Counted from the first letter of the stretch, positions 13,957-41,284 are shown. The stretch is 64,000 nucleotides of DNA from an uncultured bacterium (GCA_964452465.1 CAYVMD010000006.1:2425-66424), one strand, 5' to 3'. Notes: generated from the sequence alone by a model not told the origin. Numbers and translations: made by a program.

Positions 13957-14754
13957 TCACTGCCCCATGATATCTCGACAGGAGAAGGCAAGGGAACCTC
14001 CCCTGCATTTGGAGCGCAACTGTTCTGCCTTATACCATTTAGCATGCCCATCTGCGAAGACCACATTTGAGCCCTCTGTATGGCGAGTCCATCTCCTCTT
14101 TGCCAACTCCAGGTCCGTTACTACGGGCGGGCATCCGCACTGCACACCGTCAAAGGGAACGCCCGTTGGCCAGTTGGCAAACGCCGCCTGGACATTTATG
14201 GCGTAATTTGCGTCGCCATAGTTGTTCACGAGCCTGGTAACGAAGGAGTCGGTTATCACCACCGTCTCCGAGGGCACGGCGATGGAAGCGAGGCGATAGG
14301 CGCCCGTTCTCCAACCTTGTCCCCACCAGATGCCAGCGAAGGGTGCTTCTTGTATACCTACATTGTAACCGTAATTGCAACGGAAGTTAGGCTGACCGTG
14401 TAGCCCCGGATAGCAGTTCGCCTTCCAGGTGTTATCCTGTTGGGAGCTGGGGCAAGAGAAGACCCCCGTGTTCTTCACATAGGGCATCAGTTGTTCGAAC
14501 CAATCCAGACCGGTGAATTGTCCATTCTTGCCCGCCCCGCAGGGGGTTTCCATGGTGGGGAGACATTCATCCCAATCCTGCGTGTACATCGCAAGCGCGG
14601 TCCCTATCTGTTTCACATTGCTCAGGCATGCTGTTTTCCTTGCTTGTTCCCTTGCTCGACTGAATACTGGGAAGAGGATAGCTGCCAGGATGGCGATAAT
14701 AGCTATCACCACCAGCAGCTCTATCAATGTGAAACCCTTCCTTTTCCCTATCAT
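13957..14754 (-). CDS. Prepilin-type N-terminal cleavage/methylation domain protein, DUF1559 (H-X9-DG) family (paralog 1)
   Basis: RBS AAGGAGGTG. N-terminus [31 protein letters not shown] is a class III signal (G|FTLIEL). C-terminal [16 protein letters not shown]9-DG motif. Confidence 0.8.
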
Positions 14755-24791: not shown

Positions 24792-24866
24792 TGGAGCCGA
24801 CGGTGGGATTCGAACCCACGACCTGGTGATTACGAATCACCCGCTCTTCCACTGAGCTACATCGGC
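24792..24866 (-). tRNA. tRNA-Thr (anticodon CGU)
   Basis: Minus-sense GCCGATGTAGCTCAGTGGAAGAGCGGGTGATTCGTAATCACCAGGTCGTGGGTTCGAATCCCACCGTCGGCTCCA. Cloverleaf with a GGTTCGAATCC T-loop, anticodon loop TTCGTAA, and an encoded CCA. Confidence 0.85.
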
Positions 24867-31447: not shown

Positions 31448-32212
31448 ATGTTAAAGGGTAAAAGAGGGTTTACATTGATAGAGCTATTGGTGGTCATAGC
31501 TATCATCGCCATTCTCGCGGCGATACTCTTCCCAGTATTCAGCCGAGCAAGGGAACAGGCGAGGAAGACAGCTTGTCTCTCCAATATGAAGCAGATAGGA
31601 ATGGCGTTGGCTATGTATACCCAAGATTGGGATGAAACACTTCCCTTCTGGTGGTTCCGCTGCTGGGGTGGACCTAATGTAGGTGGCTTGTATTGGCATG
31701 AGCAGCTTATGCCCTATGTGAAGAACCTCGATGTTTTTAGATGCCCCAGTGCTAGTGTGGAATGGCAAGCTCCGTGTGGGTGTTATCCAGGCACTGTAGG
31801 TAGACCCCAGAATAACATAAGATGCAACTATGGTTATCATGACAACATGTTGGCCGGCAGTGACGGAATTAACAGGTTAGCCAGGCAAGCATCTCCAGCG
31901 GAAACAGTGGTAATAGCGGACGCTTTTGACAACTGGATGACTCCTTACGCACCGATGAGTGCAGGGGGGATAATTGCAAAGGTTGCTTTCGCTAATATCC
32001 CGGACAAGTTTAACACCCCAGGTTTTAGCTGCGGTTGCCCGCCTACAATTAGCTTGCCTCTCGATGTGGCCCTTGATAAGTGGGCTCGACACTCGGGAGG
32101 AGCAGTCCTCGTCTTTGCGGATGGACACGCGAAGTGGTATAAAGGCGACCAGATAAAATCTCGATGTCGGGGAGGCACCCTTCGCATAAGTTGTCCTGAT
32201 ATAAGACAGTAA
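31448..32212 (+). CDS. Prepilin-type N-terminal cleavage/methylation domain protein, DUF1559 (H-X9-DG) family (paralog 2)
   Basis: RBS AAGGAGGAG. N-terminus [32 protein letters not shown]-terminal [14 protein letters not shown] motif. About 55% identical to paralog 1. Confidence 0.8.
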
Positions 32213-32221
32213 ACGAAGCAA

Positions 32222-32245
32222 GGGGGGAGGCGAAAGCCTCCCCCC
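32222..32245 (+). terminator. GC-rich stem-loop 3' of DUF1559 paralog 2 (same hairpin as at 13919-13942)
   Basis: ggggggaggc-gaaa-gcctcccccc, 10 nt after the stop. Confidence 0.45.
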
Positions 32246-32381
32246 AATTTATAAAAAAGAAAATATATCTTAAAATGTAGCCCGCTGGAGGCTTTCCCAG
32301 CAGGGGGATAGAGGGATTTCCTTGACCTGGGTCTACTTTTCCTCTTAAATTCTTCGAAAATCCCTATAGGGAGGCGATTTT

Positions 32382-33362
32382 ATGCTTACTTCTGAGAAGG
32401 TCAAGGAATACGCTAAAAGACACGGAGCGGATATAGTGGGAGTGGGCTCCATGGATAGATTCGAGGGGGCGCCTAGAGAAATGGATCCAAGATATATCTT
32501 CCCCTCTGCGAAGGCGATCATTGGCTTCGGCTTCCGCATCCCCAGGGGTTGCTTTAGGGGAATAGAGGAGGGAACTTATTTCGCCGCTTATCCCTCTATG
32601 GGTTATTCCTTTATTAACCTGGTTTACGCCCCCATTGTGCTCTACGAAGTCTGCAAGATGCTCGAGGACGAAGGCTACGAGGCGACTCCCATCCAGAACA
32701 TGGTGATCGGCTCCTCGGTCGATATATTGAAGGGGCATAAAACTAATCTGAGCAGATCGGTTTCGCCCCACAAGCCTGCCCCCGATGTCCTTCTTCATTT
32801 TCGTATCTCCGCTGTTATCTGTGGGATGGGGGAGATCGGCTATAGCAAATTATTCCTCTCCCCTGAGTTCGGTCCTCGCCAGAGGCTGGCTTTCATCCTA
32901 ACCGATGCTCCCTTGGAGCCGGACCCCATCTTCGAGGGACAAATTTGCGATAAATGCATGAGGTGTGTAAGCGAGTGCTCGGGCAAGGCGATATCGGCTG
33001 CGGAAACGGTGAAGGTTAAAATCGCGGGGAGGGAATTCGAATGGGGGAAATTGGATGAGGAACGTTGTATGCTTGCTTATACGGGTGGTGCGAAAGAGAC
33101 CTCTCCTTTTCTTCCTCCCGATTATCCCTATGGGGATATCGAAAAGGTGGAAACAGGTGCAGGTTATGCCAATCCCGCCTTTCGGGAACTATGCAAAATA
33201 CCCTATAATGCTTCCTCCCTCAGCGTATTTCATCATCTTGGTGCTATAGAGGGGGCAAGGGGATGCATCCGTGCTTGTATGATGCACCTCGAGGAGACAG
33301 GCAGGATAAAGGCGAGGTTTAAGGAGCCTTTTAGAAAGAGTCGACCCTGGAGCCTCGTCTGA
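32382..33362 (+). CDS. Epoxyqueuosine reductase (QueG)-like Fe-S protein, divergent
   Basis: Own promoter TTGACC-17-TTAAAT and RBS AGGGAGG. DUF1730-like N-terminus, then CDKCMRCVSEC 4Fe-4S motif, aligning with B. subtilis QueG. The second ferredoxin motif is degenerate. Confidence 0.5.
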   Translation: MLTSEKVKEYAKRHGADIVGVGSMDRFEGAPREMDPRYIFPSAKAIIGFGFRIPRGCFRGIEEGTYFAAYPSMGYSFINLVYAPIVLYEVCKMLEDEGYEATPIQNMVIGSSVDILKGHKTNLSRSVSPHKPAPDVLLHFRISAVICGMGEIGYSKLFLSPEFGPRQRLAFILTDAPLEPDPIFEGQICDKCMRCVSECSGKAISAAETVKVKIAGREFEWGKLDEERCMLAYTGGAKETSPFLPPDYPYGDIEKVETGAGYANPAFRELCKIPYNASSLSVFHHLGAIEGARGCIRACMMHLEETGRIKARFKEPFRKSRPWSLV

Positions 33363-33399
33363 GTTATAATGGAGGAAATCTCCCCAAGGAGGGATCGTC

Positions 33400-34092
33400 A
33401 TGTCCGTGATACAGGAAGTAAAGCGAGTGTTCTACTTTAACCTATCCATGGGCTTCTGCCACGAAACCACCGCCACCGCAGCGGATGTAATCACCCGGTT
33501 AGGATGGCGTTCCCAGCCCCGTTTCATCACCACCGCCAGCGAGGACTGGAGGCTTATAACGCGGGATATTCTGAAGGATTACGATGCCCTCATTTTCTAC
33601 ACCACTGGCGAACTCCCCTTCACCGAGGAGCAGAAGAAGGCGCTCTTGGATTTCATCAAGGAAGGCAAGGGCTTCGTGGGGATCCATAGCGCGGTTGATA
33701 CCTTCTACCAGTGGTCGGAGTATGGGGAAATGATCGGTGGATACTTCAATGGGCACCCCTGGCATCAAAAGGTGAGGGTGATCGTTGAGGACAACACCCA
33801 TCCCGCTACAAGACATTTGGGGGGGACCTGGGAAGTGGTGGACGAGATATACCAGGTGAGGGATTGGTCGAGGGAGAAGGTGAAGGTACTAATGAGGTTG
33901 GATCCCGCCTCTGTGGATATCTCTAAGGGAGCAAGGGAAGATCAGGATTACGCCCTCGCTTGGTGCAAGACATACGGCAAAGGGCGAATCCTCTACACCG
34001 CCCTTGGACATCCCGTGGAACTTTGGTGGGATGAGAAGTTCCAACAGCATCTCCTCGGCGCCATCCTCTGGGCGATGGGGGTGCTCGAATAA
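33400..34092 (+). CDS. ThuA-like (trehalose utilisation) class-I glutamine amidotransferase-like protein
   Basis: [29 protein letters not shown]...[14 protein letters not shown] matches the ThuA family pattern. Confidence 0.7.
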
Positions 34093-34799
34093 TTAGGAAG
34101 GGCGGTTTCACCCTCTTAGAATTATTGGTCGTTATAGCTATTATCAGCATCCTTGCTTCCATCTTGTTTCCCATATTCAGCGAGGCAAGAGAGAGGGCAC
34201 GGCAATCGGTTTGCCTGAGCAACCTCAAGCAACTTTACCTCGCTTTTTCCATGTATCTACAGGATTACGACGAGTTCTTTCCCTGCAATAGCGATCCTTT
34301 CCTTTGGATGGGGAGAAACTGGCGACCGTTAATTTCCCCCTACATCAGGGGTATAAGGATCAAAAGTAACCCTTACGGCTACAAGGCGCCCATTCAAACC
34401 GAGCATTCCGATGTCTTCCTTTGTCCTTCCGATGTCCAGGCACCCGCGAAATGGGAGAGGACTTCCTATGGCTATTCCTTAGCCTTCTACCATTCTAAAT
34501 GGCAGGTGAATTCCATGAAGCAATGGACGGATGCGTTGAGGAGCGATATACCATCCATTCCTCAAACCCTCTCTTCCGTCCTTTACCCAGATAAAAAGGC
34601 TCTCCTGGGGGAATGGCTTTCCAATCATGAAAGGATAAAAGACGATAAAGGTTGGTGGTGTTATGAGGGAGCAAGGAATTTCCTCTTCGTGGATGGACAC
34701 TGCAAGTTCCTGCGGGCGAGCGAGCTTAGGCTTGCCAACGATGGCTATCCCGACATAAACCTTACCATTGATGGCATAGAGGGAAAAGATATAGAATGA
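34089..34799 (+). CDS. Prepilin-type DUF1559 (H-X9-DG) protein, paralog 3, with non-canonical ATA at the expected start (possible pseudogene)
   Basis: The frame is open from 34035 and reads IIRKGG|[24 protein letters not shown]. The ATG aligned with paralogs 1 and 2 is ATA at 34089-34091, overlapping the thuA stop (ATAA rather than ATGA). SD GGGGGTG is intact. C-terminal FVDGHCKFL motif. The ORF-track start is an internal TTG at 34125. Confidence 0.55.
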
Positions 34800-34815
34800 A
34801 AGGACGGGTGATTAG

Positions 34816-37800
34816 ATGATGAGGAAGATCTTCTTTGTCTGCGTGGTTTTAACCGCTTTGTCCTTCGTTTGGTCACAGCCCGCTTGGCATCAACTTTACC
34901 TGGATGGGGGAGGTTATTGGAAGGGGAGGATTCGCTTAGAAGTGGAGAATCCAACCTCCCAGGATGTTAAGGGGGAGACGATCCGGATTAAGGTGGGAGC
35001 AAATCCCGAAGAATTGAATTTGGTGGGAGAGGAAGCCAAGGGTCTGCGTGTCTGCGATGAAGAAGGAAGGGAACTCCTCTTCGACATACTCTCCTCTGCT
35101 GGGGGTTGTAAGCGTTCGGGGAAATTGACCAAGGGGGATATGCTTCTTCTGCCCGTGGAGGTGAAGACAGGGGAGAAGAAGGGATATTTCGTCTACTACG
35201 GCAACGAAGATGCCTGGGGAGTGCCTGATTTTTGGAGGGGTGGGTTATACAACGGGGGATTTGAGATAGGGAAGGATTCTCCCGAGGATTGGTCGGCGGT
35301 GGAAACGGATGCCTACCACCAGGTTTTCTGGGTTAAGGAGAATCCCCATTCAGGGAGATATTGTGCGAAGACGGTCGTTAGGATGGGTGCTTCCCCATCT
35401 TGGGTGAAGTACCATCAGACGAACATCCCTATCGTGGAGGGCAGAAGGTATATCCTACGCGCCTGGGTGAAAGCGAAGGATGTAAAGGGGATGGCGGGAT
35501 GGTTCATACATGTTTTCGGCAATAAGGGATGGCTTATCAACCAGGTTTTGAATGCTGGTGAGGGAACTTACGATTGGAGGGAGATAACCTATGAATTCGT
35601 TGCCCCCGAAAGCGCTACCAACGCCACTATCGGTACCGTGCTTTACGGCACGGGCACCGCTTGGTTCGATGATGTCTCCCTCCAACCCGCTGAGCCGATG
35701 GAAAACCTACTGCGGATTTCCATCGGTGGGAGGGAGGAAATGAGGCTAAGGGAGATAAGGGGCGGGGACAGAGAAAACAGGGCAAGTTTCTTCCAGGAGA
35801 TAAAGGTGCGTAACTTCTCCAATTCCCCTAAGGGGGGAGTTCTTATCTCCTTGGAGTTGAACCGCTTGCGCCGATACATCCCCTCCCTTAAATTCCGCAT
35901 CCTCGATCCCGAGACGAAGAAAACCTGTCCCTATATCAAATTCGAGGATATCCTTCTCTTCATCACCTCTCTTCCTCCCAAGAGCGAGAAGGTCTTCCTC
36001 CTCTATCCCGACGAGAAGGGCGAGGAGATGGACCTTCAGCAGTTGATAACCAGCAAGGTCAACCTGGTGAAAAATCCCTCCTTTGAGGAAGAGGACGAGA
36101 ATCACCTCCCTGCCTATTGGCAAGGTGGATTTGAGATGGAGAAAAGGGAGGGGAGAGCGGTGATCGTTTCCTCCCTGCGGGAGGGAAATGTCGTCCTCGG
36201 CATCCCCTCCCTCGATAGTAGGGACCCTGCGCTTGGGAATAAATGCGCCCGTTTAGAGATCCCCGAGGGTGCTCCCCTTCGCTGGGTAGGTTGGCATCAG
36301 GAGATCCCGGCTAACCCCAATACCACCCATCTTTATCTTGGTTTCCTCAAAACGGAAAACCTCAAGGGGGAGGTCGTCCTCTACGGACACTTTCACGACA
36401 AGGAGGGCAAGCTCTGCCAGGGAGCGCAGTATTTCCAAACCGCTCCTGCCTTATCCGGCACTCGCCCTTGGACGCTCACCTATTCCCTCCTCCAGACTCC
36501 CTATGATTGTGCCTCCGTGGAGCTCCATTTAACGGTGAACGCCCATGGCATCGTCTATCACGATGGCATATTCTTTGCTGAGGTGGAGAAAGGGATATGG
36601 GGCAAAGCATATGCTCCTCCCTCTAAAGAAATGCTCAATGTCTGGCAGGTTGATCCCTTGATCAAGGTTTTCCAGGACGATGTGCCCGGACCCGCCCCTA
36701 AGGAGATAAGGTTATATTGCGCCATTAACGAGAGAGAATCCCTTCAGTTGGCGTTCCGAAGCGAGAAGGGGCTCAAGGGGGTAAGGATATCGGTGAGAAA
36801 GCCAATGAATAAAGCGGGGCAAACCCTCCCCGATGTTAAAGTTAACCTTGTGGGCTATGTGCCCATAGATGTTCCCTCTGCTTATTATTCCTCTCCCGCT
36901 CAAGCGCCCTGGTATAGGTTGGTGCCCAAGGGGACGCCGGGAAGCGATGGCTGGGCAGGCTACTGGCCTGATCCTCTTCTCCCTAACAAGCCCTTCGACC
37001 TACAAGCTCAAACCACTCAGCCCATTTGGCTGACGGTCCAGGTTCCTCCCAATGCCTCTCCTGGCGAATACAAGTCCCTCATCACTATCCAGGGGGAAAA
37101 TGCCCAAATAAGCATACCCCTCACTATAAAGGTGTGGGGCTTCTCCCTTCCGAAGAGCCCTTCCCTCAAGGTCATATTCGATTTCCACTCTGATGCTGGC
37201 TTGGATTTGAAGAGTTGGTATAGGTTCTATGCGGAGCATCGTATCTCTCCCAATACGATTCGCCCTGAGCCCACGATAGATTATAAGGATGGGCAGGTGA
37301 GCCTTAATACATCGGGCTTCGATGAGATGGCGCATTATTGCCTCGATGACTTGGGGATGAGCGTCGTTTATCTCCCCGGCTTTTTCTACATGATGGGGTG
37401 GGGCTTTTCGCCAAAGCAGATGTTTGGCTACGAGGCATTTACTCCCGAGTTTAATCTTGCCTTTTCCCAATGCTACCGTGCCTTCCTCAACCATTTAAAG
37501 GAGAAGGGATGGAAGGACAAGTTCGTCTATTATGTTGCGGATGAACCCCACTACTGGTTTCCCAAGGTCGGGGAAAATATGGAGAAGATGTGCGATCTCA
37601 TCCATTCAGTATCCCGAGACATACCCATCTACTCCAGCGTTTGGAATTATGTGGGGGATTGGGTAGGATATCTCGATATATGGGGAGTGGGACCGCACGG
37701 CTCCTGCCCCGTGGACAAGATGGAGGAGTTGAAAAGGAGCGGGGCAAAGCTCTGGTTCACCACCGATGGACATATGTGCATAGATACCCCTTATCTGGCG

Positions 37801-38289
37801 ATCGAGAGGCTCCTGCCCTATCTCTGCTGGAAGTACGGGGTGGAAGGCTACGAATTCTGGGGGCTCAATTGGTGGACATATAATCCCTATGAGAAGGGAT
37901 GGCATGCTTTCCTTCCCCATACCTTCACCGAGGGAGGGGAGGCTACGATGATAAGATATCCCAATGGCGATGGTTTCCTTTCCTACCCGCCGGTGGATAA
38001 GAATTACAAGGAGCCAGTGTCCACCATTCGCCTGGAGCAAGTAAGGGAGGGCATAGAGGATTACGAGTATCTCGTTCTTTTGGATAGGTTGGTGGCGGAG
38101 GCAAGAGGAAAGGGAATGGATGTCTCTCGGGCAAGCAGGATTTTGGAAAGGGCAAGGGCGCTCGTCTTCATTCCCAACAAGGGAGGCTTGAGATCCCTTT
38201 CCCTGCTCCCTCGTCCCTCGGAGGTTGCAGAAATACGAAGGGCAATGGGAGAGGAGATAGAGAGGCTCCTTAGAGAAAGAAAGGAATAG
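34816..38289 (+). CDS. Large secreted protein with two CBM4/9-like carbohydrate-binding modules and a C-terminal DUF4091-like glycoside-hydrolase-like domain
   Basis: Signal peptide. Two jelly-roll segments (GGLYNGGFEIG...WSAVE... and NLVKNPSFEEED...YWQGGFEME...). C-terminal YYVADEPHYWFP...IWGVGPHG resembles DUF4091. Confidence 0.5.
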   Translation: MMRKIFFVCVVLTALSFVWSQPAWHQLYLDGGGYWKGRIRLEVENPTSQDVKGETIRIKVGANPEELNLVGEEAKGLRVCDEEGRELLFDILSSAGGCKRSGKLTKGDMLLLPVEVKTGEKKGYFVYYGNEDAWGVPDFWRGGLYNGGFEIGKDSPEDWSAVETDAYHQVFWVKENPHSGRYCAKTVVRMGASPSWVKYHQTNIPIVEGRRYILRAWVKAKDVKGMAGWFIHVFGNKGWLINQVLNAGEGTYDWREITYEFVAPESATNATIGTVLYGTGTAWFDDVSLQPAEPMENLLRISIGGREEMRLREIRGGDRENRASFFQEIKVRNFSNSPKGGVLISLELNRLRRYIPSLKFRILDPETKKTCPYIKFEDILLFITSLPPKSEKVFLLYPDEKGEEMDLQQLITSKVNLVKNPSFEEEDENHLPAYWQGGFEMEKREGRAVIVSSLREGNVVLGIPSLDSRDPALGNKCARLEIPEGAPLRWVGWHQEIPANPNTTHLYLGFLKTENLKGEVVLYGHFHDKEGKLCQGAQYFQTAPALSGTRPWTLTYSLLQTPYDCASVELHLTVNAHGIVYHDGIFFAEVEKGIWGKAYAPPSKEMLNVWQVDPLIKVFQDDVPGPAPKEIRLYCAINERESLQLAFRSEKGLKGVRISVRKPMNKAGQTLPDVKVNLVGYVPIDVPSAYYSSPAQAPWYRLVPKGTPGSDGWAGYWPDPLLPNKPFDLQAQTTQPIWLTVQVPPNASPGEYKSLITIQGENAQISIPLTIKVWGFSLPKSPSLKVIFDFHSDAGLDLKSWYRFYAEHRISPNTIRPEPTIDYKDGQVSLNTSGFDEMAHYCLDDLGMSVVYLPGFFYMMGWGFSPKQMFGYEAFTPEFNLAFSQCYRAFLNHLKEKGWKDKFVYYVADEPHYWFPKVGENMEKMCDLIHSVSRDIPIYSSVWNYVGDWVGYLDIWGVGPHGSCPVDKMEELKRSGAKLWFTTDGHMCIDTPYLAIERLLPYLCWKYGVEGYEFWGLNWWTYNPYEKGWHAFLPHTFTEGGEATMIRYPNGDGFLSYPPVDKNYKEPVSTIRLEQVREGIEDYEYLVLLDRLVAEARGKGMDVSRASRILERARALVFIPNKGGLRSLSLLPRPSEVAEIRRAMGEEIERLLRERKE

Positions 38290-39382: not shown

Positions 39383-41284
39383 TCAAGTCCCTTTGCTCGC
39401 TAACTCCGCGATTGCCTGGGCATACGCTTTGGAAGCACCCTGCATAGTTTCTATCAACCTCTCCGCGCTCTTTGCTATCTCCTTTCTCAGAGAAGCTTCC
39501 CCCAGGAGCGCTTTCACCTTCTCGCTTAACTCTTTGCTATTCCTAACTTCTATACCAACCTCTGCCTGCTTCGCTAAATCCGTTATATCTCGGAAATTGT
39601 GCATATAAGGACCGAAGAGGACCGGCTTCCCCCAGGCTAAGGGTTCCAGGATATTGTGTCCTCCCTTGGGCACTAAACTTCCTCCCACGAATGCAACCGT
39701 GCACAATCCGTAGAGGGTGAACAGCTCCCCTACGGTATCTATGAGGATGACGGCGTTTTTATCCAGGGCCTCCAGAGGCAGTCTGCTTCTTTTAACATAG
39801 GTGAAGCCTCGCTTGGAAAGGAGGCTCTCCACTTCCTCCATTCTCTCGGGATGACGAGGCGCGAGGATCAGCCTTAAATGGGGGAAGGAAAGGCGAGCAT
39901 TCCAATAGGCATCGAGGACCATTTCTTCTTCTCCGGGGTGGGTGCTTCCGGCGACGAGGATTTCCTCGTCCTCCTCTATTTTAAGTAGGTTCTTTAGGTT
40001 TTCCAATTTCGAAAGGTCCTTGCTAAGGGCAACTTGGTCGAACTTACTGTTCCCCACCACTTTTACATTCCTGCCTCCGCTTTGGAACGCCCGCTTGGCG
40101 TCCCGTTCCGACTGCATAAAAAGGGTCATCTGTTCCAAAAGCGGGGCAAAGAAGAACTTGAGGGCGCGCATCTTCACCAAACTATCATCCGATATCCTAC
40201 CGTTTACCAAAAGCAAGGGGATGTTAAGGAGCCTCGCCCAGAAGATGAGGTTGGGCCAGACCTCGGTCTCCACCAGCGCTATCACCCGGGGCTTCAACCT
40301 TCTTAGAGCTATAAGGGGGCAGGGAAATATATCGAGGGGGAAATAGAAAAGTTTGGCGAGGTCGCGAAGATGCCTTTTTGCGGTTTCCATCCCCGTGGTG
40401 GTCGTTACGGAAAGGTAGATTTCTTTCTCCTCCACCAATCGCTTTAGGTTTTCCACTATTGGCTTGGCTGCCATGGTCTCCCCCACGGAAACGGCGTGCA
40501 CCCAGATGGCCCCTTCTCCCCTGGGAGCCAGCCCCATTTTCTCCTTCCATCCCCTCAATTTCTTCCCCCCAAACTGGCGGAGGAAAAACCAACCCAATAT
40601 GAAGGGCAAAAGAAGGAAGATGGCTATGTTGTAAAGAAGGATGGGGATAAGCAACCTCCAACGAGAGGGGCGCGGGTCTTCTATGAGGAGCTTCTTTGCT
40701 TTTTCCTCTTCCCTATCCAATGCCTGCTTCACCGAATTTAGATCTCCTTGGGGATAGAAAGGTTTTCCGAAGGAGACGATGATTTTGGAAAAGGGGAGGG
40801 GGAGAAGATGCCTATCCCAAGTGGGAAGCCTAAGGGCAGGGCTTATCGCTACTCCCACCGGTATGATGGGGGTATCCCTATCGGTGAGGAGGAGGATGCC
40901 CTTCTTGGGGATGCGAGGCGGACCGAGGGGACCGTCCGGCGTTATCCCCAGGATCTCCCCCTGGGCAAGGGCTTGCTTGGCTTGGCGGAAGGCGGAGATC
41001 CCGCCTCGCCTGCTCGAGCCCAGGATAACCTTGCAGCCCGAAAGGGTGAGGAATTTCCCCAGAAGCCTTCCATCGGCGGAAGGGGAAACTATGCAGAGCA
41101 GTTTCCTCTTCCTTAGCAGGAAAACGGGGATGGAGAAGAGGCTATGCCAAGAGGCAAGTATGCTTCTCCTTTTAATCCTTTCCATTCCCAGGATATTTAA
41201 TCGAGAGGTAGCTAGGACGAGGTGGAAATAAAGCCAGGCGATATAAGGGGCTAAGGATGCCAAGTATTTAAGAAACCTTCTCAT
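39383..41284 (-). CDS. waaA: DUF374 (lysophospholipid acyltransferase-like) domain fused to 3-deoxy-D-manno-octulosonic acid transferase
   Basis: A DUF374-like segment of about 230 aa precedes the WaaA glycosyltransferase (IWVHAVSVGETMAAKPIVENL, GT30 C-terminus). RBS GGGAAGAGG. Confidence 0.8.
   Translation of the reverse strand: MRRFLKYLASLAPYIAWLYFHLVLATSRLNILGMERIKRRSILASWHSLFSIPVFLLRKRKLLCIVSPSADGRLLGKFLTLSGCKVILGSSRRGGISAFRQAKQALAQGEILGITPDGPLGPPRIPKKGILLLTDRDTPIIPVGVAISPALRLPTWDRHLLPLPFSKIIVSFGKPFYPQGDLNSVKQALDREEEKAKKLLIEDPRPSRWRLLIPILLYNIAIFLLLPFILGWFFLRQFGGKKLRGWKEKMGLAPRGEGAIWVHAVSVGETMAAKPIVENLKRLVEEKEIYLSVTTTTGMETAKRHLRDLAKLFYFPLDIFPCPLIALRRLKPRVIALVETEVWPNLIFWARLLNIPLLLVNGRISDDSLVKMRALKFFFAPLLEQMTLFMQSERDAKRAFQSGGRNVKVVGNSKFDQVALSKDLSKLENLKNLLKIEEDEEILVAGSTHPGEEEMVLDAYWNARLSFPHLRLILAPRHPERMEEVESLLSKRGFTYVKRSRLPLEALDKNAVILIDTVGELFTLYGLCTVAFVGGSLVPKGGHNILEPLAWGKPVLFGPYMHNFRDITDLAKQAEVGIEVRNSKELSEKVKALLGEASLRKEIAKSAERLIETMQGASKAYAQAIAELASKGT

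Follow-up and report, generated by a model that had tools for sequence, protein, structure and literature searches.

How is a gene translated when its reading frame carries an entire prepilin leader and no canonical start codon? The question arises in a 64,000-nucleotide (nt) stretch of DNA from an uncultured bacterium (GCA_964452465.1, CAYVMD010000006.1:2425-66424; hereafter the window), in which the third of three DUF1559 prepilin-like genes (paralog 3) follows thuA. The 3' end of thuA reads GGG GTG CTC GAA TAA, and its stop codon (34090-34092) overlaps an ATA codon of the pilin frame (34089-34091) in the four bases ATAA. The pilin frame, which is -1 relative to thuA, runs ATA (34089) ATT (34092) AGG AAG GGC GGT (34104) TTC ACC CTC TTA GAA TTA TTG (34125) and translates as I-I-R-K-G-G|F-T-L-L-E-L-L, the bar marking the predicted cleavage site. 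Read directly, the sequence bears out the initial annotation, which had described a full leader and cleavage site without an ATG and with ATA overlapping the thuA TAA. A listing of open reading frames (ORFs) and a six-frame scan showed that ATG, GTG and TTG are all absent from this frame between the preceding stop at about 34032 and TTG 34125; the open stretch of the pilin frame begins at 34035, 18 codons 5' of ATA. We propose that paralog 3 is likely to be a working gene that starts on AUA or AUU and that is probably coupled to thuA.

Translated from ATA, paralog 3 scored above the cut-offs of PF07963 N_methyl (31.8 bits, cut-off 21.2), TIGR02532 (32 bits, cut-off 16.3) and PF07596 DUF1559/SBP_bac_10 (33.1 bits, cut-off 23.3). 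The product has the short leader ending in Gly, the Phe at +1, the Glu at +5 and the hydrophobic helix of a prepilin. Its C terminus carries a ...FVDGH... segment; TIGR04294 (H-X9-DG) matched paralog 1 with 22.4 bits, and paralog 3 was not listed for this family at E <= 0.001. A homology search returned 4182 homologues of paralog 3 at E <= 1e-3, mostly annotated as DUF1559 or prepilin-type. Paralogs 1 and 2 are present as described initially, both with an ordinary ATG. The further claim that ATA is aligned with the ATG of these paralogs holds only loosely: in an ungapped alignment ATA occupies position -6 and the paralog ATG position -7, where paralog 3 has CGA, and leader length is variable across the prepilin-like family surveyed. 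The survey of all fetched loci covered 99 distinct prepilin-like ORFs, of which only the orthologues of paralog 3 lack an in-frame canonical start. Every other ORF had one (97/97), mostly 3-5 codons before G-1, and both ATA and ATT would give paralog 3 a leader of this usual length.

The junction was compared in five assemblies from four runs, namely the window, L001 (SRR6318356), L003 (SRR29054607), L002 (ERR14373517) and L173 (ERR14373512). The orthologous loci, examined for ATG versus ATA, have ATA at the junction in all five assemblies. The sequence ATA ATT is found in the window, in L001, a Logan assembly reached via an exact ThuA protein match and identical to the window at the junction, and in L003, whose pilin is 97.5% identical to that of the window at the amino-acid level. 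L002 and L173 carry a diverged haplotype, ATAATAATT, which is also without ATG: here thuA ends in CTC GAA TAA TAA TTA..., and the pilin frame reads ATA ATA ATT AGA GAG CAC GGT TTC. The difference stems from an insertion of 3 nt (L002:1843-1848) that gives thuA a tandem stop, TAA TAA, and the pilin frame a second ATA, and that resembles a slippage event at the TAA/ATA triplet. The insertion is in frame, and the L002 leader, (I)-I-I-R-E-H-G, keeps G-1. A homology search with the pilin identified one close cluster, P0001 (88% identity), all other matches being at most 56% identical; the L003, L002 and L173 contigs were reached through members of this cluster and of the ThuA cluster.

The last codons of thuA contain a Shine-Dalgarno (SD) sequence, GGGGGTG, that is identical in five of five assemblies. 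It had been described as intact, correctly, and as lying 8 nt upstream of the ATA, which is not the case, since 8 nt reaches ATT: GGGGGTG (34077-34083) ends 5 nt short of ATA, and the GGGGG core is separated by 7 nt from ATA and by 10 nt from ATT. Window genes with a clear GGAGG show spacings of mostly 7-10 nt, with 7 nt as the modal value. The predicted GGGGGTG duplex, calculated for an assumed canonical anti-SD, has an energy of -12.8 kcal/mol and is stronger than the duplexes at 22 of the 32 gene starts in the window; only 2.8% of coding positions drawn at random from the window have an SD this strong at such a distance. The choice of GGG GTG for Gly-Val has a probability of about 0.33 x 0.38 under window codon usage, and in a ThuA relative with 81% identity, where no pilin overlaps, the M-G-V-L residues are likewise present but spelled ATG GGT GTT CTT, which is not SD-like. 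The strong SD, the conservation of the junction and the purifying selection described below support the idea, one of several raised initially, that ATA may act as a rare initiator. ATT 34092, which the initial annotation did not mention, is an equally conserved candidate; the constant SD spacing and the retained AUAA overlap would slightly favour ATA over ATT.

Could the missing ATG be an artefact or a lesion instead? A sequencing or assembly error, with G as the true base at 34091 and ATGA as the true junction, has in its favour only the prior that single-base errors happen. The same base is present in the window, L001 and L003, the L002/L173 haplotype is likewise devoid of ATG, and, as ATG is absent in all five assemblies and both haplotypes, error is excluded for practical purposes. 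A very recent pseudogene, also considered initially, is at odds with the comparison between the window and L002, in which rates of synonymous (dS) and non-synonymous (dN) substitution were estimated by the Nei-Gojobori method. From ATA onwards, paralog 3 has a dS of 0.36, a dN of 0.060 and a dN/dS of 0.165 (43 synonymous and 32 non-synonymous differences; Fisher p = 3e-13 for the difference in rates), and the start-less state is common to lineages this far apart. All three variants keep the ORF whole, with neither frameshift nor stop in 236 codons and with the in-frame ATA/TAA triplet as its sole indel. Nucleotide identity between the window and L002 is 89-94% over four genes, which places the split at about species level; a start-less state that has outlasted such a split under constraint like that of its neighbours is incompatible with a recent pseudogene. 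A related reading, that the gene has little or no expression and is a start knockout drifting toward a pseudogene in the clade, is in our view improbable. It draws on the facts that pseudogenes classically begin with the loss of their ATG, that the family is redundant, with three paralogs in the window and thousands of homologues, and that the NCBI annotation is only a 182-amino-acid (aa) fragment; yet the dN/dS of paralog 3 equals that of the neighbouring GH123-like gene, neither lineage has acquired a stop or frameshift, and the lesion is older than a species-level split (about 89% nucleotide identity).

If the gene is translated, the start could still lie elsewhere. All assemblies contain TTG 34125, the first canonical codon available in frame, and the gene callers chose either it or a neighbouring GTG (P0122, P0001). 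Initiation at this TTG, or at the adjacent GTG in L002, would leave the upstream leader as an undecayed relic and yield a 224-aa membrane-anchored protein lacking leader, cleavage site and Glu+5. The dN/dS measured across most of the gene is compatible with such a start too. We nevertheless consider it unlikely, and the corresponding option in the initial annotation is disfavoured: there is no SD-like run in the 30 nt upstream of TTG, though strong SDs are frequent in the genome; the window has GTC in place of the GTG called in L002; and the product would begin within the hydrophobic helix, lacking both a charged N-region and the family-defining N_methyl motif. Moreover, between G-1 and V+9 the window and L002 differ in three codons (GAA->GAG, TTA->CTA and GTC->GTG), all synonymously and two of them upstream of TTG, and G-1, F+1 and E+5 are kept in both lineages at a dS of 0.36. 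Identity is 92% over the 24 nt that encode GFTLLELL, compared with 81% and 69% for the two short intergenic spacers of the locus, which have diverged by 19-31%. The stretch 5' of TTG 34125 behaves as coding sequence and looks translated. Far less probable is a ThuA-pilin fusion produced by a programmed -1 slip near the end of thuA, for example at G GGG 34077-34080, from which prepilin peptidase would then free the mature pilin. Such a fusion would suit the -1 frame of the pilin, its 18 open codons 5' of ATA and the five-G run located there, but the last 19 thuA codons contain no X XXY YYZ slippery heptamer, and a pilin domain was found in 0 of 120 ThuA homologues among the matches listed. We know of no precedent for a 230-aa prepilin leader. 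In this part of thuA a single substitution tells the two frames apart: the G at 34074 has become T, which is silent in thuA (GCG->GCT) and replaces D with Y in the pilin frame, while the other two changes (CAG->GAA) alter the residue in both frames. The pilin frame is therefore unconstrained 5' of the SD, which argues against an upstream start as well as against a frameshift fusion. CTG 34068 was considered as an upstream start and rejected: no SD precedes it, and because the thuA codons dictate that it be conserved, its conservation is uninformative.

For paralog 3 we infer AUA/AUU initiation, coupling to thuA, low expression and leader cleavage. GGGGGUG in the last thuA codons would set the ribosomal P site on AUA/AUU, and fMet-tRNA would initiate on AUA 34089, AUU 34092 or both, at reduced efficiency. 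Because the pilin frame begins inside the thuA stop, both genes are almost certainly on one mRNA, and this shared mRNA together with the overlap suggests that initiation is probably helped by thuA-terminating ribosomes, through coupling or re-initiation. A terminating thuA ribosome or a left-behind 30S subunit would have to shift its P site by only +2 or +5 nt. A scan of the + strand found no terminator between thuA and the pilin gene, and a promoter scan returned promoter-like matches only at chance level. The output would be low, roughly 1-30% of that from AUG by analogy with measured cases, and prepilin peptidase would cut after Gly-1, such that either start would yield the same mature F-T-L-L-E-L-L... 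protein.

Several points weigh against this interpretation. Coupling to thuA is deduced from geometry alone, and the case for translation as a whole is built on sequence. There are only two diverged lineages, so the conservation of ATA/ATT amounts to one independent comparison, and the two codons are indistinguishable as starts from the present data. The leader shows changes of K to E and G to H, and it is less basic in L002. Purifying selection over most of the gene is expected under a TTG start too, and the evidence specific to the region 5' of TTG consists of two synonymous changes and the retention of the motif. Finally, the anti-SD is an assumed one, the 16S rRNA lying outside the window.

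A more radical version of the coupling, which we regard as possible but rather doubtful, is that AUAA serves as a site of obligatory termination-reinitiation at a non-AUG codon, with the pilin made only together with ThuA and in a small, constant proportion to it. The SD inside thuA would hold the finishing ribosomes, which would restart on AUA/AUU, and the start codon would be free to be near-cognate because the prepilin leader is discarded. If true, obligatory reinitiation would represent a selected stoichiometry device in a sugar-utilisation string of thermophilic Armatimonadota and not a tolerated lesion. The junction is a four-base start/stop overlap, ATAA 34089-34092, between co-oriented genes; it is kept in L002, and its start member is non-canonical. 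Ordinary 4-nt overlaps between co-directional genes are found in the window as ATGA at 21918-21915 (-) and TTGA at 39386-39383 (-), and the genome uses the -4 coupling geometry elsewhere. At the TTGA site (39383-39386), an ATG two codons downstream constitutes an alternative start.

The RNA fold was examined as well. In the minimum-free-energy fold of 34046-34125 of the window, the SD (GGGGGUGC) is paired with the upstream segment GCAUCUCC (CAUCUCC), and the AUAAUU start region (AUAAUUAGGA) is paired with the downstream segment UCUUAGAAUUAUU / GAAUUAUU. The z-score of the fold is -1.2 in the window, and L002 adopts a different fold with z = -1.1. A conserved hairpin that masks SD and start and thereby enforces coupling is unsupported, given the weak z-scores and the different fold of L002.

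As to the origin of the junction, the earlier proposal that a single G-to-A change at 34091 would turn the start ATG into ATA and, in the same step, the stop TGA into TAA is logically sound and chemically neat and provides a candidate route; TAA is the commonest stop in the window (16/32). Scans of genome and metagenome contigs with the pilin gave nothing closer than 52-54% identity and no outgroup with this junction, and the ThuA relatives at 81%, 69% and 69% identity lie in different neighbourhoods and supply no junction outgroup either. In two loci with an 81% identical ThuA, the nearest relative outside the clade (L004:4717-4971 and L005), thuA has a 9-residue C-terminal extension and is followed by an AT-rich spacer of about 85 nt and then by a pilin gene that has both an SD, AAGGAGGTG, and an ATG to itself. 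The thuA-pilin adjacency recurs in these loci without the overlap.

Unusual starts were also seen in more distant pilin homologues. In a 54%-identical homologue (L166:1429-1590; JGI 3300020567, P0004), the leader-proximal ATG is 1 base out of frame in a G-run (GGTGATGGGGAGGGGTTCTCA). One added G would restore M-G-R-G|F-S-L; the called ORF begins instead at an ATG 40 codons upstream, which overlaps a radical-SAM gene as ATGA. The out-of-frame ATG may reflect an error in the homopolymer or a start at which slippage is likely. A second homologue (L167:1-100; GCA_012961665.1, P0002) has the SD AAGGAGG followed by GGG CGT CGA GGG CTC ACG (G-R-R-G|L-T-L-V-E), with no ATG, GTG or TTG nearby; as its ORF reaches the edge of the contig without a stop, a start farther upstream is possible. 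L168, which together with L166 and L167 represents the nearest subfamily (53-54% identity), has a normal ATG. As a sign that a non-canonical start might be a habit of the subfamily these loci are suggestive, but each case may reflect an assembly artefact or a truncation, and they were not used in the argument.

The features of the locus are collected in the table. Paralog 1, the 326-aa gene (orf326), thuA, paralog 3 and the gene for a GH123-like hydrolase form a co-directional string (31448-38289, + strand), the last of them beginning 16 nt 3' of paralog 3. The order orf326-thuA-pilin-GH123 is kept in L002 and L003, paralog 1 lying outside the conserved part, and the GH123-like gene is syntenic in a further locus, L174. 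The string ties pilin-like proteins to a glycan-utilisation locus. ThuA of the window is 93% identical to its orthologue in L002 and 98% identical to that in L003, and its best source-named matches are from Fervidibacter, which places the host near Fervidibacteria in the Armatimonadota. Far from the junction, a tRNA-Thr gene (anticodon CGT; 24792-24866, - strand) was the sole Rfam/ARAGORN match in the 64-kb window.

Table. Features of the thuA-pilin junction and of the surrounding locus; positions are those of the window, and dN/dS values refer to the window versus L002.
Feature	Position	Strand	Remarks
Shine-Dalgarno GGGGGTG	34077..34083	+	from thuA codons (AT)G GGG GTG
ATA, candidate initiator	34089..34091	+	7 nt 3' of GGGGG core in both haplotypes
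ATT, second candidate initiator	34092..34094	+	present in both haplotypes; core spacing 10 nt in the window, 13 nt in L002
TTG, first in-frame canonical start	34125..34127	+	within hydrophobic helix; unlikely to be used
Prepilin leader (I/M)-I-R-K-G-G	34089..34106	+	Pfam N_methyl, TIGR02532; predicted cleavage after Gly 34104-34106
DUF1559 prepilin-like paralog 3	34089..34799	+	236 codons from ATA; stop 34797-34799; PF07596 and PF07963
thuA, 230 aa, ThuA domain	33400..34092	+	Pfam PF06283, E = 3e-53; stop TAA 34090-34092; dN/dS 0.105
orf326, 326-aa gene 5' of thuA	32382..33362	+	weak 4Fe-4S-type (RDH/QueG-like) NCBIfam matches only; dN/dS 0.055
GH123-like glycoside hydrolase, 1157 aa, CBM4/9 domain	34816..38289	+	PF13320, PF22680; dN/dS 0.166
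DUF1559 paralog 1	31448..32212	+	usual ATG and SD; MLKGKRG|FTLIE
DUF1559 paralog 2	13957..14754	-	usual ATG and SD AAGGAGGTG; MIGKRKG|FTLIE

The public calls for this gene (P0121, P0122 and P0001) are truncated at the N terminus: the NCBI protein has 182 aa and starts at an internal ATG, and the Logan proteins have 224 and 223 aa. In the precomputed annotation the truncated calls lack the PF07963 prepilin motif. A complete prepilin would accordingly be mis-described in every database copy, and a start model restricted to ATG, GTG and TTG misses paralog 3. To the AUA/AUU starts measured in Firmicutes and Proteobacteria the locus adds a candidate from a distant phylum, conserved and preceded by a strong SD, and the start/stop overlap could be used to test how far re-initiating ribosomes tolerate near-cognate codons. 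The scale is modest, as this is a single gene and the family to which it belongs is very large, redundant and functionally uncharacterised.

Within the DUF1559 family, which occurs in Planctomycetota, Armatimonadota and relatives and is abundant in the first two, paralog 3 is typical in its G|FTLLE motif, its DUF1559 match and its glycoside-hydrolase neighbour, and differs as the sole surveyed member, of 99, without a canonical start. A literature search on DUF1559 returned next to nothing published, its function being essentially unstudied, and a phrase search for natural bacterial AUA starts yielded mostly mitochondrial papers. Conserved AUA/AUU starts with an extended SD are nevertheless already known in bacteria, if uncommon. 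Ribosome profiling in Staphylococcus aureus identified conserved AUA/AUU starts of infC, ccpN, cvfC1 and citZ with about 10-30% of the efficiency of AUG, each preceded by an extended SD (PMC13009471). In S. aureus and Bacillus subtilis the start codons are AUA for infC, AUA for ccpN, AUU for cvfC1 and AUA for citZ (PMC13009471). Like these starts, the candidate codons of paralog 3 are near-cognate for AUG, conserved and placed at a proper distance from a long SD. In contrast to them, the start of paralog 3 overlaps an upstream stop as AUAA and comprises two adjacent near-cognates, and the gene, known from sequence alone, encodes a prepilin with a discarded leader in a Fervidibacter-related member of the Armatimonadota.

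In Escherichia coli, AUA, AUU, AUC and CUG support 0.02-3% of the translation obtained with AUG, and the confirmed natural cases are only infC and pcnB, both with AUU (10.1101/063800); for these AUU starts, PMC13009471 cites Binns & Masters 2002. An AUA mRNA was equal to its AUG counterpart in vitro within an optimised initiation region, and an AUG-to-AUA mutant of T4 rIIB lost about 85% of translation (PMC5499595). The E. coli infC and pcnB genes are natural chromosomal genes whose expression is limited or regulated by an AUN near-cognate start, as we propose for paralog 3; infC uses its AUU for autoregulation by IF3, whereas the pilin paralog has no evident regulatory logic. Termination-reinitiation coupling at 4-nt overlaps is, for its part, well described (PMC6728339, PMC12548453). 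ATAA has the same geometry as the NTGA overlaps, in that the last two bases of the start are the first two of the stop and the SD lies in the upstream gene, but NTGA overlaps pair NTG with TGA, and paralog 3 pairs a non-canonical start with TAA.

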